Assembly (NCBI RefSeq): GCF_003334315.1 | Contig: NZ_QOWR01000041.1 | DNA from: Escherichia coli | GTDB taxonomy: Bacteria; Pseudomonadota; Gammaproteobacteria; Enterobacterales; Enterobacteriaceae | DNA length: 43,657 nt | Strand: one strand, 5' to 3' | Shown: positions 885-30,732 of the stretch, piece after piece | Numbering within the stretch: the first letter of the stretch is position 1 | Layout of the letters: every line of letters begins with the position of its first letter | The notes under the pieces: generated by a model | Told to the model about the DNA's origin: nothing | The model's input: the letters and a program-made list of their open reading frames with translations, nothing else | The model's database searches: none | Position numbers and translations under genes: made by a program

Positions 885-3146
885 ATGTCGCAACATAACG
901 AAAAGAACCCACATCAGCACCAGTCACCACTACACGATTCCAGCGAAGCGAAACCGGGGATGGACTCACTGGCACCTGAGGACGGATCTCATCGTCCAGC
1001 GGCTGAACCAACACCGCCAGGTGCACAACCTACCGCCCCTGGGAGCCTGAAAGCCCCTGATACACGTAACGAAAAACTTAATTCTCTGGAAGACGTACGC
1101 AAAGGCAGTGAAAATTATGCGCTGACCACTAATCAGGGCGTGCGCATCGCCGATGATCAAAACTCACTGCGTGCCGGTAACCGTGGTCCAACGCTGCTGG
1201 AAGATTTTATTCTGCGCGAGAAAATCACCCACTTTGACCATGAGCGCATCCCGGAACGTATTGTTCATGCACGCGGATCAGCAGCTCACGGTTATTTCCA
1301 GCCATATAAAAGCTTAAGCGATATCACCAAAGCGGATTTCCTCTCAGATCCGAACAAAATCACCCCAGTATTTGTTAGGTTCTCTACCGTTCAGGGTGGC
1401 GCTGGCTCTGCCGATACCGTGCGTGATATCCGTGGTTTTGCCACCAAGTTCTATACTGAAGAGGGTATTTTTGACCTCGTTGGCAATAACACGCCAATCT
1501 TCTTTATCCAGGATGCGCATAAATTCCCCGATTTTGTTCATGCGGTAAAACCAGAACCGCACTGGGCAATTCCACAAGGGCAAAGTGCCCACGATACTTT
1601 CTGGGATTATGTTTCTCTGCAACCTGAAACTCTGCACAACGTGATGTGGGCGATGTCGGATCGCGGCATCCCCCGCAGTTACCGCACCATGGAAGGCTTC
1701 GGTATTCACACCTTCCGCCTGATTAATGCCGAAGGGAAGGCAACGTTTGTACGTTTCCACTGGAAACCACTGGCAGGTAAAGCCTCACTCGTTTGGGATG
1801 AAGCACAAAAACTCACCGGACGTGACCCGGACTTCCACCGCCGCGAGTTGTGGGAAGCCATTGAAGCAGGCGATTTTCCGGAATACGAACTGGGCTTCCA
1901 GTTGATTCCTGAAGAAGATGAATTCAAGTTCGACTTCGATCTTCTCGATCCAACCAAACTTATCCCGGAAGAACTGGTGCCCGTTCAGCGTGTCGGCAAA
2001 ATGGTGCTCAATCGCAACCCGGATAACTTCTTTGCCGAAAACGAACAAGCAGCATTCCATCCAGGTCATATTGTTCCTGGTCTGGACTTCACCAACGATC
2101 CGCTGTTGCAGGGGCGTTTATTCTCCTATACCGATACACAAATCAGTCGTCTTGGCGGGCCAAATTTCCATGAGATTCCGATTAACCGTCCGACCTGCCC
2201 TTACCATAATTTCCAGCGTGACGGCATGCATCGCATGGGGATCGACACTAACCCGGCTAATTACGAACCGAACTCGATTAACGATAACTGGCCGCGCGAA
2301 ACACCGCCGGGGCCGAAACGCGGCGGTTTTGAATCATACCAGGAGCGCGTGGAAGGCAATAAAGTTCGCGAGCGCAGCCCATCGTTTGGCGAATATTATT
2401 CCCATCCGCGTCTGTTCTGGCTAAGTCAGACGCCATTTGAGCAGCGCCATATTGTCGATGGTTTCAGTTTTGAGTTAAGCAAAGTCGTTCGTCCGTATAT
2501 TCGTGAGCGCGTTGTTGACCAGCTGGCGCATATTGATCTCACTCTGGCCCAGGCGGTGGCGAAAAATCTCGGTATCGAACTGACTGACGACCAGCTGAAT
2601 ATCACCCCACCTCCGGACGTCAACGGTCTGAAAAAGGATCCATCCTTAAGTTTGTACGCCATTCCTGACGGTGATGTGAAAGGTCGCGTGGTAGCGATTT
2701 TACTTAATGATGAAGTGAGATCGGCAGACCTTCTGGCCATTCTCAAGGCGCTGAAGGCCAAAGGCGTTCATGCCAAACTGCTCTACTCCCGAATGGGTGA
2801 AGTGACTGCGGATGACGGTACGGTGTTGCCTATAGCCGCTACCTTTGCCGGTGCACCTTCGCTGACGGTCGATGCGGTCATTGTCCCTTGCGGCAATATC
2901 GCGGATATCGCTGACAACGGCGATGCCAACTACTACCTGATGGAAGCCTACAAACACCTTAAACCGATTGCGCTGGCGGGTGACGCGCGCAAGTTTAAAG
3001 CAACAATCAAGGTCGCTGACCAGGGTGAAGAAGGGATTGTGGAAGCTGACAGCGCTGACGGTAGTTTTATGGATGAACTGCTAACGCTGATGGCAGCACA
3101 CCGCGTGTGGTCACGCATTCCTAAGATTGACAAAATTCCTGCCTGA
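885..3146 (+). CDS. katE: Catalase HPII (large-subunit monofunctional catalase)
   Basis: 753-aa ORF with N-terminus [20 protein letters not shown] and catalase core motifs (RERIPERVVHA-like, GSAAHGYF); length matches KatE. Confidence 0.97.
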
Positions 3147-10532: not shown

Positions 10533-12033
<1,501 letters not shown>

Positions 12034-26484: not shown

Positions 26485-27792
26485 ATGAAACGTGTTTCTC
26501 AAATGACCGCGCTGGCAATGGCTTTAGGGCTGGCTTGCGCTTCTTCGTGGGCCGCTGAACTGGCGAAGCCTCTTACACTTGACCAGCTTCAACAACAAAA
26601 TGGCAAAGCGATAGATACTCGCCCCAGCGCGTTTTATAACGGCTGGCCACAAACCTTAAATGGCCCTTCTGGTCATGAACCTGCCGCCTTAAACCTCTCT
26701 GCCAGCTGGCTTGACAAAATGAGCACCGAACAGCTCAACGCGTGGATCAAGCAACATAACCTGAAAACCGATGCTCCGGTGGCGCTGTACGGTAATGACA
26801 AAGATGTCGACGCCGTCAAAACGCGACTGCAAAAAGCAGGTTTAACGCATATCTCCATCCTGAGTGACGCGCTAAGCGAACCTTCCCGTCTGCAAAAACT
26901 GCCGCATTTTGAGCAGCTGGTTTATCCGCAATGGCTGCACGACCTGCAACAAGGTAAAGAGGTTACGGCGAAACCTGCCGGTGACTGGAAAGTCATTGAA
27001 GCGGCCTGGGGCGCTCCTAAGCTTTACCTTATCAGCCATATTCCCGGCGCTGACTACATCGATACCAACGAAGTGGAAAGTGAACCGCTGTGGAACAAAG
27101 TTTCTGATGAACAACTAAAAGCGATGCTGGCAAAACACGGCATTCGCCATGACACCACGGTCATTCTGTATGGGCGTGACGTATACGCTGCAGCGCGTGT
27201 GGCGCAGATTATGCTTTATGCTGGCGTGAAAGATGTGCGCCTGCTGGATGGCGACTGGCAAACCTGGTCCGACGCGGGACTGCCTGTTGAGCGCGGAACG
27301 CCACCGAAAGTGAAAGCGGAACCGGATTTCGGCGTGAAGATCCCGGCACAACCGCAGTTGATGCTCGATATGGAACAGGCCCGTGGACTGCTGCATCGCC
27401 AGGATGCATCGCTGGTGAGCATTCGTTCGTGGCCAGAATTTATCGGTACGACCAGCGGTTACAGCTATATTAAACCAAAAGGTGAAATAGCCGGAGCACG
27501 TTGGGGACACGCTGGTAGCGACTCGACGCATATGGAAGATTTTCATAACCCGGATGGCACCATGCGCAGCGCCGATGATATTACCGCTATGTGGAAAGCG
27601 TGGAATATCAAACCAGAGCAGCAAGTTTCATTCTACTGCGGCACCGGCTGGCGCGCGTCCGAAACCTTTATGTACGCACGCGCCATGGGTTGGAAGAATG
27701 TTTCCGTGTATGACGGCGGCTGGTACGAATGGAGCAGCGATCCAAAAAATCCGGTAGCAACCGGTGAACGCGGCCCGGACAGTAGCAAATAA
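26485..27792 (+). CDS. ynjE: Periplasmic multi-domain rhodanese (thiosulfate sulfurtransferase)
   Basis: 435-aa product MKRVSQMTALAMALGLACASSWAAELAK… with signal peptide and C-terminal rhodanese active-site CGTGWR. Confidence 0.9.
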   Translation: MKRVSQMTALAMALGLACASSWAAELAKPLTLDQLQQQNGKAIDTRPSAFYNGWPQTLNGPSGHEPAALNLSASWLDKMSTEQLNAWIKQHNLKTDAPVALYGNDKDVDAVKTRLQKAGLTHISILSDALSEPSRLQKLPHFEQLVYPQWLHDLQQGKEVTAKPAGDWKVIEAAWGAPKLYLISHIPGADYIDTNEVESEPLWNKVSDEQLKAMLAKHGIRHDTTVILYGRDVYAAARVAQIMLYAGVKDVRLLDGDWQTWSDAGLPVERGTPPKVKAEPDFGVKIPAQPQLMLDMEQARGLLHRQDASLVSIRSWPEFIGTTSGYSYIKPKGEIAGARWGHAGSDSTHMEDFHNPDGTMRSADDITAMWKAWNIKPEQQVSFYCGTGWRASETFMYARAMGWKNVSVYDGGWYEWSSDPKNPVATGERGPDSSK

Positions 27793-27800
27793 CATTGCAA

Positions 27801-28427
27801 TTACTGACGCTGGAGCGACTTCAGCGTCAGATACCCACTCCACACCCGCGTAAAGGTCGTCATCCAGCACAACGCACCGAAGATCCACGCAAACCACGCA
27901 AACCATGCAGGGAATAAACATCCCAGCACAAACAGTAAGATCGTTTCTGTGCCTTCGGTTAATCCCCCCAGATAGTAAAACGACTTATGTGCATAACCGG
28001 GGTTATCAATCTGATGTTTTGCTGCCAGTGCAGCAAAGGCGAGAAAACTGCTGCCCGTGCCGATAAACGCAAACAACAACCAGCCGCCTGCCAGCGCATT
28101 TTGCTCCGGTGCAGCAAGAATAAAGCCAAACGGCACCAGCGCGTAAAAGAGAAAATCGAGAGAAATATCAAGAAAGCCGCCCGCGTCGGTAAGCTCTCTG
28201 CGCCGCGCCAGCGCACCGTCCAGACCATCAAGCAGCCTGTTCAACAAAATGACGACTAGCGCCGCCAGATACCAGCCCAGCGCCAGAAACGGCAGAGCCA
28301 GTACGCCGATGGCAAATCCCACTAATGTTAAACCATCTGGCGTAATGCCCGGTTTATCAAGAACCCGCACGCATTGATGCAACAACGGTTTAATCCGGGG
28401 ATGAAGATGGCGGTCTAGCACAGGCAC
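27801..28427 (-). CDS. ynjF: CDP-alcohol phosphatidyltransferase-family membrane protein
   Basis: 208-aa ORF with D-G-x2-A-R…G-x3-D-x3-D-like motif (LLDGLDGALARRRELTDAGGFLDISLD); the true start may be the GTG 2 codons in. Confidence 0.85.
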   Translation of the reverse strand: MPVLDRHLHPRIKPLLHQCVRVLDKPGITPDGLTLVGFAIGVLALPFLALGWYLAALVVILLNRLLDGLDGALARRRELTDAGGFLDISLDFLFYALVPFGFILAAPEQNALAGGWLLFAFIGTGSSFLAFAALAAKHQIDNPGYAHKSFYYLGGLTEGTETILLFVLGCLFPAWFAWFAWIFGALCWMTTFTRVWSGYLTLKSLQRQ

Positions 28428-28507
28428 TCCTTAAATATAAAGCCTTTCTGATTGAGCAACAGTGCGGATATTATGGCATTTTTCGCTTATCTGCCCGTGT
28501 GTAATTT

Positions 28508-28915
28508 ATGAAAATGATTGAAGTTGTTGCCGCCATCATTGAACGTGATGGCAAAATTTTACTCGCGCAACGCCCCGCCCAGAGCGATCAGGCGGGATTA
28601 TGGGAGTTTGCCGGTGGTAAAGTCGAGCCGGATGAAAGTCAGCGGCAGGCGCTGGTGCGTGAGTTACGCGAAGAACTGGGCATCGAAGCAACTGTGGGTG
28701 AGTATGTTGCCAGCCATCAGCGAGAAGTTTCGGGGCGGATTATCCATCTTCATGCCTGGCACGTACCCGACTTCCACGGGACGTTACAGGCACATGAACA
28801 TCAGGCGCTGGTCTGGTGCTCACCTGAAGAGGCGCTGCAATATCCGCTGGCCCCTGCTGACATTCCACTATTAGAGGCGTTTATGGCTTTACGCGCCGCC
28901 AGACCAGCGGATTAG
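28508..28915 (+). CDS. nudG: Nudix hydrolase (CTP / 5-methyl-dCTP pyrophosphohydrolase)
   Basis: 135-aa ORF with the Nudix box GGKVEPDESQRQALVRELREELGIE. Confidence 0.92.
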   Translation: MKMIEVVAAIIERDGKILLAQRPAQSDQAGLWEFAGGKVEPDESQRQALVRELREELGIEATVGEYVASHQREVSGRIIHLHAWHVPDFHGTLQAHEHQALVWCSPEEALQYPLAPADIPLLEAFMALRAARPAD

Positions 28916-29153
28916 TGCTAAGGGTTTTGTCATCACGCTGGCATTGCAGCAGTATTCCCTCGGCTTTAATTACCGCTCCTTCAGAATAATTTTTATCCTG
29001 ATAAACGCAGCACTGAGTACAGGGCTGCGCTGACTGCCCGCCTGAACTGAACACTTCTGGCGGTACGTTTACCTCCACGTCCGGACGATAATGCGGGTTA
29101 GCCAGTGCAATTAATGGAAATGCTAATACTACGGCGAACAATGCTCGACTCAC
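28881..29153 (-). CDS. ynjH: Small secreted Cys-containing protein (DUF1496)
   Basis: 90-aa ORF MSRALFAVVLAFPLIALANPHYRPD… with a signal peptide; its 3' end overlaps the nudG 3' end by 35 nt. Confidence 0.8.
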   Translation of the reverse strand: MSRALFAVVLAFPLIALANPHYRPDVEVNVPPEVFSSGGQSAQPCTQCCVYQDKNYSEGAVIKAEGILLQCQRDDKTLSTNPLVWRRVKP

Positions 29154-29286
29154 AGGGAGCTCCTTAACGTTATTGTCTCTGCTACTGATAACGGTAGCCG
29201 GGCGGCAAAACTTTAGCGTCTGAGTTATCGCATTTGGTTATGAGATTACTCTCGTTATTAATTTGCTTTCCTGGGTCATTTTTTTC

Positions 29287-29317
29287 TTGCTTACCGTCAC
29301 ATTCTTGATGGTATAGT
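29287..29317 (+). promoter_or_regulatory. Candidate sigma-70 promoter for gdhA (TTGCTT - 19 bp - TATAGT)
   Basis: Hexamers read from the sequence about 70-100 nt upstream of the gdhA ATG; the spacer is slightly long, so the call is tentative. Confidence 0.35.
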
Positions 29318-29388
29318 CGAAAACTGCAAAAGCACATGACATAAACAACATAAGCACAATCGTATTAATATATAAGGGTTTTATATCT

Positions 29389-30732
29389 ATGGATCAGACA
29401 TATTCTCTGGAGTCATTCCTCAACCATGTCCAAAAGCGCGACCCGAATCAAACCGAGTTCGCGCAAGCCGTTCGTGAAGTAATGACCACACTCTGGCCTT
29501 TTCTTGAACAAAATCCAAAATATCGCCAGATGTCATTACTGGAGCGTCTGGTTGAACCGGAGCGCGTGATCCAGTTTCGCGTGGTATGGGTTGATGATCG
29601 CAACCAGGTACAGGTCAACCGTGCATGGCGTGTGCAGTTCAGCTCTGCCATCGGCCCGTACAAAGGCGGTATGCGCTTCCATCCGTCAGTTAACCTTTCC
29701 ATTCTCAAATTCCTCGGCTTTGAACAAACCTTCAAAAATGCCCTGACTACTCTGCCGATGGGCGGTGGTAAAGGCGGCAGCGATTTCGATCCGAAAGGAA
29801 AAAGCGAAGGTGAAGTGATGCGTTTTTGCCAGGCGCTGATGACTGAACTGTATCGCCACCTGGGCGCGGATACCGACGTTCCGGCAGGTGATATCGGGGT
29901 TGGTGGTCGTGAAGTCGGCTTTATGGCGGGGATGATGAAAAAGCTCTCCAACAATACCGCCTGCGTCTTCACCGGTAAGGGCCTTTCATTTGGCGGCAGT
30001 CTTATTCGCCCGGAAGCTACCGGCTACGGTCTGGTTTATTTCACAGAAGCAATGCTAAAACGCCACGGTATGGGTTTTGAAGGGATGCGAGTTTCCGTTT
30101 CTGGCTCCGGCAACGTCGCCCAGTACGCTATCGAAAAAGCGATGGAATTTGGTGCTCGTGTGATCACTGCGTCAGACTCCAGCGGCACTGTAGTTGATGA
30201 AAGCGGATTCACGAAAGAGAAACTGGCACGTCTTATCGAAATCAAAGCCAGCCGCGATGGTCGAGTGGCAGATTACGCCAAAGAATTTGGTCTGGTCTAT
30301 CTCGAAGGCCAACAGCCGTGGTCTGTACCGGTTGATATCGCCCTGCCTTGCGCCACCCAGAACGAACTGGATGTTGACGCCGCGCATCAGCTTATCGCCA
30401 ATGGCGTTAAAGCCGTCGCCGAAGGGGCAAATATGCCGACCACCATCGAAGCGACTGAACTGTTCCAGCAGGCAGGCGTACTGTTTGCACCGGGTAAAGC
30501 GGCTAATGCTGGCGGTGTAGCAACGTCAGGCCTTGAAATGGCGCAAAACGCTGCGCGCCTGGGCTGGAAAGCCGAGAAAGTTGACGCACGTTTGCATCAC
30601 ATCATGCTGGATATCCACCATGCCTGTGTTGAGCATGGTGGTGAAGGTGAGCAAACCAACTACGTGCAGGGCGCGAACATTGCCGGTTTTGTGAAGGTTG
30701 CCGATGCGATGCTGGCGCAGGGTGTGATTTAA
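29389..30732 (+). CDS. gdhA: NADP-specific glutamate dehydrogenase
   Basis: 447-aa ORF MDQTYSLESFLNHVQKRDPNQTEFAQAVREV… with the GDH active-site region (GGGKGGSDFDPKGKS). Confidence 0.96.
   Translation: MDQTYSLESFLNHVQKRDPNQTEFAQAVREVMTTLWPFLEQNPKYRQMSLLERLVEPERVIQFRVVWVDDRNQVQVNRAWRVQFSSAIGPYKGGMRFHPSVNLSILKFLGFEQTFKNALTTLPMGGGKGGSDFDPKGKSEGEVMRFCQALMTELYRHLGADTDVPAGDIGVGGREVGFMAGMMKKLSNNTACVFTGKGLSFGGSLIRPEATGYGLVYFTEAMLKRHGMGFEGMRVSVSGSGNVAQYAIEKAMEFGARVITASDSSGTVVDESGFTKEKLARLIEIKASRDGRVADYAKEFGLVYLEGQQPWSVPVDIALPCATQNELDVDAAHQLIANGVKAVAEGANMPTTIEATELFQQAGVLFAPGKAANAGGVATSGLEMAQNAARLGWKAEKVDARLHHIMLDIHHACVEHGGEGEQTNYVQGANIAGFVKVADAMLAQGVI

Follow-up and report, generated by a model that had tools for sequence, protein, structure and literature searches.

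Convergent genes whose coding sequences overlap at their 3' ends form a described class in prokaryotes. E. coli K-12 contains 58 such overlaps (Lillo & Krakauer 2007, PMC2174442). They arise mainly by stop-codon mutation, and phase 123:132 is the commonest among convergent overlaps of at least 5 nt (49%) (PMC2174442). The nudG/ynjH pair of Escherichia coli resembles this class in its opposite strands, shared 3' ends, shortness, phase, and read-on to the next stop. Nothing categorical sets it apart; its family-wide conservation and clean one-sided constraint are well-resolved details. A second point of comparison is the excludon. In the classic excludons, such as the Listeria flagellar mogR locus, reciprocal expression has been demonstrated. 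Those excludons overlap in long UTRs, whereas the nudG/ynjH overlap lies within coding sequence. The overlap itself is already known. The "overlapping genes nudG and ynjH" were the strand-specific Ribo-seq example in Figure 1 of GWIPS-viz in 2018 (PMC5753223). In 2025, ExcludonFinder placed nudG-ynjH, cho-ves, and ynjE-ynjF among 165 convergent excludons present in at least 50% of 58 E. coli transcriptomes (PMC12288877). What we add is the conservation of the overlap across the family, the asymmetry of the constraint on it, and the stop positions that it allows.

We analysed a 43,657-nt stretch of an E. coli genome (contig NZ_QOWR01000041.1), called the window here. Its gene order is E. coli K-12-type (chb ... 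cho, ves, spy, ast, xthA, ydjX-ynjF, nudG, ynjH, gdhA, ynjI, topB). By the open reading frame listing and the sequence, nudG occupies 28508..28915 on the plus strand, encodes 135 aa, and ends in a TAG stop at 28913-28915. ynjH occupies 29153..28881 on the minus strand and encodes 90 aa from a GTG start to a TAA stop at 28883-28881. The 35 nt from 28881 to 28915 are coding on both strands, for NudG F125-D135 plus its stop and for YnjH T80-P90 plus its stop. The codon layout gives an antisense phase of 1:1, 2:3, 3:2 (123:132). The ynjH TAA is embedded in the nudG codons TTT-ATG (F125-M126). Start-codon ambiguity is irrelevant to the overlap because the 3' ends are fixed by stop codons.

The original prediction was a 35-bp tail-to-tail overlap with ends at 28915 (plus) and 28881 (minus), and the open reading frames and RefSeq bear it out. 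It had named corrected gene ends as what would abolish the overlap. RefSeq gives identical ends for both genes in a 100%-identical E. coli chromosome, and the overlap stays. The locus is carried by 5424/5426 complete E. coli genomes. An annotation or sequence artefact, in which a frameshift or a spurious open reading frame leaves no true coding overlap, is close to inconceivable here. Small open reading frames with GTG starts are often miscalled, and long database overlaps are frequently mispredictions (PMC2478687), but this overlap is short (35 nt) and its stop codons are unambiguous. The same ends recur across E. coli genomes and in 48 loci of other species. NudG has been solved at full length (PDB 2RRK), the Pfam DUF1496 model reaches YnjH residue 89/90, and ribosome footprints lie on both strands (PMC5753223). 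The artefact reading is already refuted by this gene-end, structure, profile, and footprint evidence. nudG and ynjH are a genuine convergent pair of two protein-coding genes, and their overlap is real.

NudG matches NCBIfam NF007834 over residues 1-135 of 135, with 267.9 bits against a cutoff of 156. Its function label is CTP / pyrimidine (d)NTP pyrophosphohydrolase, Nudix family. Family assignment used the pattern G-x5-E-x7-R-E-U-x-E-E-x-G-U together with a full-length match above the curated cutoff. NudG has both, and its translation contains an intact Nudix box (G37-x5-E43-x7-R51-E52-L53-x-E55-E56-x-G58-I59). It is the NudG / PRK10546 equivalog, a Nudix hydrolase. NudG shares the intact box with MutT and other Nudix hydrolases and differs from them by a tail of 5-7 residues past the C-terminal helix. 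In a by-eye alignment, MutT of E. coli ends at the equivalent of NudG L128, and other solved Nudix proteins align only to NudG residues 120-127. The AlphaFold 2 (AF2) model of NudG (pLDDT 94) has a C-terminal helix at 118-130, followed by five residues of nonhelical coil with pLDDT about 70. The helix end at residue 130 is taken from this model and not from the 2RRK coordinates.

RefSeq names the ynjH product "YnjH family protein." YnjH matches Pfam PF07383 (DUF1496) over residues 33-89 (model 1-53 of 53, E=2e-24). It belongs to this family, with an end-to-end profile match that includes the C-terminal (S/G)TNxLxW motif. In 37 diverse DUF1496 members, W85 is invariant, and G59, C71, and (S/G)TNxLxW are conserved. 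We aligned 58 relatives of YnjH from across Enterobacteriaceae, and their conservation is of the coding type. Residues 1-18 of YnjH, MSRALFAVVLAFPLIALA (29100..29153, minus strand), read as a putative signal peptide. The N-terminus, MSRALFAVVLAFPLIALA/NP, has a basic n-region, a hydrophobic core, and an A-x-A end (ALA before NP). An equivalent segment is present in 58/58 relatives, and the cysteines C45, C48, C49, and C71 are invariant among them. The earlier description (90 aa, a signal peptide, four cysteines in the mature protein) agrees with this pattern and its invariance. These features make YnjH a candidate small disulfide protein, secreted or periplasmic, with a putative Sec signal peptide. 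A Shine-Dalgarno sequence, AAGGAG, can be read at 29160..29165 on the minus strand, 6 nt before the GTG start.

The AF2 model of YnjH is confident only for residues 45-90, which form a small beta domain. The last beta-strand is 83-87 (LVWRR), with pLDDT about 89. A Foldseek search of this model against the PDB returned no match with E<0.3. There was only a weak likeness to cysteine-rich VWF and mucin modules, and we claim no fold family. Deletion of ynjH gave no motility phenotype (PMC4183435). DUF1496 is not restricted to chromosomal ynjH. A paralogue carried on the plasmid pOXA-48 is so abundant that its mature 10.2 kDa form is the dominant MALDI-TOF marker peak, so the family is processed and well expressed on pOXA-48 at least (bioRxiv 10.64898/2026.07.12.738056).

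For comparison, we assembled 59 loci, made up of 58 ynjH loci from species-representative genomes (about 20 genera) and an annotated E. coli locus (L001). A convergent overlap was present in 48/59 loci, with lengths of 35 nt (21 loci), 41 nt (26 loci), and 44 nt (1 locus); the genomes are related, and these counts overstate independence, as does the Fisher p given below. The Salmonella overlap is 41 bp. A Phytobacter contig, retrieved separately, has an overlap of 26 bp. The overlap is conserved across the family and is not a strain-specific accident or a sequencing error.

The remaining 11/59 loci lacked the standard overlap. xthA takes the place of nudG beside ynjH in five of them (L024, L028, L029, L030, and L047). 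nudG is relocated 1.9 kb away in L027, and the flanks retrieved for L041 and L048 contained no nudG. ynjH contains an internal stop in L053. L008 and L009 have a truncated or degraded nudG. In 10 of the 11 loci, all but L053, the C-terminal YnjH sequence STNPLVWRRV has essentially not changed. In Citrobacter koseri NCTC10786 (L008, 3225-3609), nudG ends early (...APADIRC*), leaving 6 nt between it and ynjH. In Trabulsiella guamensis (L009, 3091-3351), nudG is an 86-aa remnant. Both are type-collection genomes, and ynjH is intact in both. Given the damage to nudG in these two loci, NudG appears to be dispensable in some lineages.

The other end of ynjH is also overlapped in some genomes. At 10 loci from Buttiauxella, Cedecea, and related genomes (L034, L036, L037, L039, L040, L044, L048, L052, L056, and L058, at about 2974-3074 in each), ynjH lies 3' of a same-strand topB-like open reading frame of 665-670 aa. 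The ynjH ATG lies 74-83 nt within the 3' end of this frame. The DNA for the YnjH signal peptide encodes the TopB tail (...KKPARRRR...) in the alternative frame. Most of these topB-ynjH genomes have overlaps at both ends of ynjH, and they lack the FliA promoter on the gdhA side.

Variation within the shared stretch was read from entropy tables of residues and nucleotides in 49 sequences anchored on the ynjH stop. YnjH T80-V88 (TNPLVWRRV) shows little or no variation. NudG is fixed as far as LAPADIPLLxAF (F125), after which nearly all of its residues (126-135) vary. Within the shared bases, it is the third positions of ynjH codons that vary; these coincide with the second positions of nudG codons, and the third positions of nudG do not change. 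The three-base rhythm shifts to nudG third positions one base left of the ynjH stop (28881). Since the variation tracks ynjH third positions, selection in the shared stretch acts on the ynjH frame. The constraint is asymmetric, with selection almost entirely on that frame. The YnjH tail is also unchanged where nudG is absent, relocated, or degraded.

The AF2 models and the entropy tables divide the stretch into two zones, each coding on both strands. Zone A (28881..28897) sets the end of the NudG helix (125-130) against YnjH R86-P90 and the ynjH stop. The variable YnjH residues there are K89 and P90, and NudG F125 is invariant. Zone B (28898..28915) sets invariant YnjH T80-W85 against the variable, unstructured NudG 131-135 and the nudG stop. 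It includes the start of the last YnjH beta-strand. The structured end of each protein faces the variable end of the other, and each dispensable end therefore overlies the structured end of its partner.

Both proteins might instead need their full overlapping tails, with the two frames limiting each other equally. We give this doubly constrained reading very little credence. NudG A131 is nearly invariant, as such a reading would expect, but it is forced by the W85/R86 junction of ynjH, which permits only Ala or Ser. R129, R132, and P133 are each found in the majority of sequences, yet radical swaps are tolerated in the same tail (A/D/G/V at 130, R/T/I/K at 132, and A/K/E/V/T/M at 134). ynjH third positions are slightly less variable within the overlap than just upstream. 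NudG length nevertheless varies among 132, 135, 137, and 138 residues, and the un-overlapped NudG of L027 ends five residues past F125. The NudG tail is modelled as a low-confidence coil. NudG lengths in protein databases (135, 137, 138, and 140 aa) are confounded by alternative starts, and individual sequences were used here.

The stops that nudG can reach were obtained by enumerating all synonymous codings of the YnjH peptide (...LSTNPLVWRRVKP). A nudG-frame stop needs a ynjH codon that starts with A after xTT, xTC, or xCT. With the conserved YnjH peptide, stops are reachable at nudG codons 128, 136, 137, and 138 only. Codon 128 becomes a stop at ynjH Val88/Lys89 with GTT or GTC, which gives an 11-nt overlap. 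Codon 136 becomes a stop at Thr80/Asn81 with ACT (35 nt), codon 137 at Ser79/Thr80 with TCT (38 nt), and codon 138 at Leu78/Ser79 with CTY/AGY (41 nt). The same enumeration yields the residues that ynjH-synonymous changes can place at NudG 129-135. Those seen in the 49 sequences are R/P/H/L, A/D/G/V, A, R/T/I/K, P/L/Q, A/K/V/T/E/M, and D/G, and they match the reachable sets. The sole exception is Ser at NudG 133 in L035, which occurs alongside V84M in YnjH.

The third position of ynjH Thr80 (28914, minus strand) toggles the overlap length. It is T in 22, G in 20, C in 4, and A in 3 of the 49 sequences. ACT gives the nudG TAG and a 35-bp overlap, and ACG, ACC, or ACA extends NudG by two codons to a 41-bp overlap. 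This switch has flipped repeatedly within Escherichia, Citrobacter, and Buttiauxella. The conserved YnjH peptide limits the stops and the 11-nt option is disfavoured, so that the overlap toggles between 35 and 41 nt through a synonymous change at Thr80.

The third position of ynjH Val88 (28890, minus strand) behaves differently from a free synonymous site. GTT or GTC there would give TAA or TGA at nudG codon 128. Val88 is GTA or GTG in 50/50 overlapping loci, and it is GTT or GTC in 3/6 comparable non-overlapping loci (L028, L030, and L048); the naive Fisher p is 8.5e-4 for sequences that are not independent. Among the valine codons of E. coli, GTA is normally the least used. The 11-nt overlap was never used among the overlapping loci examined. 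No other synonymous site of ynjH shows a visible constraint from nudG. According to the modelled helix, a stop at codon 128 would cut the NudG C-terminal helix, which is likely why the 11-nt option is avoided.

We also used the enumeration to make a prediction. A NudG that ends at residue 132 (P0395) should need a YnjH change that makes an A-starting codon 84. The Phytobacter contig encodes exactly such a change. Its YnjH carries V84I (...STHPLIWRRVKP), and CTT/ATC produces a nudG TAA and the 26-nt overlap.

We consider it very likely that the overlap is ancient, ordinary, and neutral, a by-product of tight gene packing that ynjH owns. The NudG tail would be a passive antisense shadow, its length quantised by the YnjH peptide and by stop avoidance. 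Tight packing would have put the ynjH TAA inside nudG codons F125-M126, and the nudG frame would then continue across the opposite strand of the ynjH 3' end to the next stop. The ynjH frame would be selected for the invariant last beta-strand of DUF1496 (TNPLVWRRV). The NudG C-terminal helix may be needed only to about residue 128-130, and the last 5-7 residues would form a floppy tail that mirrors synonymous drift in ynjH. An 11-nt stop would truncate the helix and be selected against. Selection for transcriptional coupling could be another reason why nudG and ynjH have stayed adjacent at zero spacing throughout the family.

As a correctly annotated and typical member of its class, the overlap has little significance beyond bookkeeping. 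It does provide a clean teaching case, in which the conserved end of one protein fixes the stop of its partner and one synonymous site is frozen against a premature stop. It also has a practical side. NudG will be changed or shortened if the ynjH 3' end is deleted or synonymously recoded. The primer JW4931 arm CTTTACGCGCCGCCAGACCAGCGG of a published ynjH::thyA deletion (PMC4183435 supplement) lies inside the overlap, at about 28888-28911 of the window. That construct keeps nudG coding to codon 134 and likely replaces the last codon and the stop (PMC4183435). Since the arm lies within the overlap, ynjH::thyA phenotypes could involve NudG.

A second convergent overlap in the window joins cho (plus, 10533..11420) and ves (minus, 11955..11380). 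They share 41 nt at 11380..11420, 17.5 kb from nudG/ynjH, in the same codon phase by arithmetic (123:132). The two pairs are alike in convergence, phase, a FliA-dependent minus-strand partner, and listing as excludons. The ves gene is FliA-dependent (PMC4183435). Unlike the family-wide nudG/ynjH overlap, that of cho/ves is not conserved beyond Escherichia-like genomes. The two genes share just 4 bp in an Enterobacter-like genome, and ves faces nadE without cho in Salmonella and Scandinavium. The length of Ves also varies (185, 191, and 200 aa). The original prediction saw the same architecture in the two pairs, repeated within 18 kb. The convergence, the 41-bp overlap, and the shared phase hold in this genome, but the likeness is superficial in evolutionary terms.

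From the 58 K-12 pairs, 0.55 convergent overlaps are expected per 43.7-kb window, and the probability of two or more is about 0.10. An 11-codon stop-free run is not improbable, and the occurrence of the overlap itself is unremarkable. We rejected the two overlaps within 18 kb as a meaningful pattern on this probability and on the lack of cho/ves conservation, and their repetition is best read as coincidence. The plus-strand partners are both in mutation avoidance, Cho as a repair nuclease and NudG as a nucleotide-pool Nudix enzyme. The minus-strand partners, ves and ynjH, are both reported to be FliA (sigma28)-dependent. This shared theme may be a coincidence as well. The FliA-dependent genes flgN, ycgR, and trg also appear in the published list of convergent excludons (PMC12288877). 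The stops of ynjE (plus) and ynjF (minus) lie 8 nt apart, at 27792 and 27801. With this abutting pair, the window holds three tightly abutting convergent pairs.

Published data connect ynjH to FliA. There is a FliA ChIP-seq peak at ynjH, and deleting fliA reduces ynjH RNA from 29 to 2 (PMC4183435). The Salmonella homologue, STM1300, is also FliA-dependent (Salmonella preprint). The sequence upstream of ynjH contains a candidate sigma28 (FliA)-type promoter, TAAAGTTT-N12-ACCGTTAT, at 29188..29215 on the minus strand. Compared with the FliA consensus TAAAGTTT-N11-GCCGATAA, its -35 element matches at 8/8 positions and its -10 element, ACCGTTAT, at 5/8, with a spacer of 12 nt. A search with at most 3 mismatches at 11-nt spacing missed this element. 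Related motifs lie upstream of ynjH in many genera (TAAAG...CCGTTAT, CCGATAA, or TCGATAT).

A consensus scan detected no intrinsic terminators in 28300-29500. A sliding RNAfold scan 3' of both stops gave hairpins, none of them followed by a U-tract; these are simple hairpin scans, which cover the intrinsic type of terminator. A bidirectional terminator as the explanation was dropped, as neither stop is followed by a hairpin with a U-tract. No RNA family was found by an Rfam search of 28300-29500 at E<=1. The coding overlap and the lack of an intrinsic terminator together mean that the 3' ends of the nudG and ynjH mRNAs should be complementary for 35 nt or more. Their complementarity is probably much longer than this, which fits the excludon listing (PMC12288877). 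Given the lack of an intrinsic terminator, FliA-driven ynjH transcription would run antisense into nudG.

These features raise the question of a regulatory excludon, in which the overlap and the lack of a terminator are maintained for mutually exclusive expression of nudG and ynjH. NudG would then be reduced by a FliA-fired ynjH transcript running antisense through nudG, either through transcriptional interference or because RNase III cuts the RNA duplex. We regard this as unlikely. Like the convergent excludons of ExcludonFinder, nudG-ynjH has no intrinsic terminator between its genes by these scans and has one partner under a dedicated sigma factor. Its place in that published list (PMC12288877) agrees with an excludon, but the call is a coverage threshold that any CDS overlap reaches automatically. 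The FliA dependence of ynjH in E. coli and of STM1300 in Salmonella fits as well, as does the conserved candidate sigma28-type promoter on the ynjH strand. Expression of ynjH is nevertheless low (29 normalised units, PMC4183435), and nudG is absent from the supplements of the FliA study (PMC4183435). nudG-ynjH adjacency is kept in most genera, yet synteny has been broken repeatedly, by xthA or other neighbours, without change to ynjH. The ynjH frame and one stop-avoidance site account for all of the sequence conservation in the overlap. Still less plausible is a working excludon in which sigma28 transcription of ynjH lowers NudG and that of ves likewise lowers Cho, coupling motility to reduced mutation avoidance.

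A reported sigma54 site near nudG (PMC4591121) has no bearing on the overlap; it falls within ynjE, about 1.3 kb upstream. In Table 2 of Fitzgerald et al. 2014, the FliA motif given for ynjH, TAACGTTATTGTCTCTGCTACTGATAAC, matches the plus strand at 29165-29192, an orientation that faces gdhA rather than ynjH. The sigma28-like element on the ynjH strand (29188-29215) lies about 20 nt farther upstream than TAACGTTATTGTCTCTGCTACTGATAAC. The TAACGTTATTGTCTCTGCTACTGATAAC and TAAAGTTT-N12-ACCGTTAT elements share the palindromic GATAAC/GTTATC.
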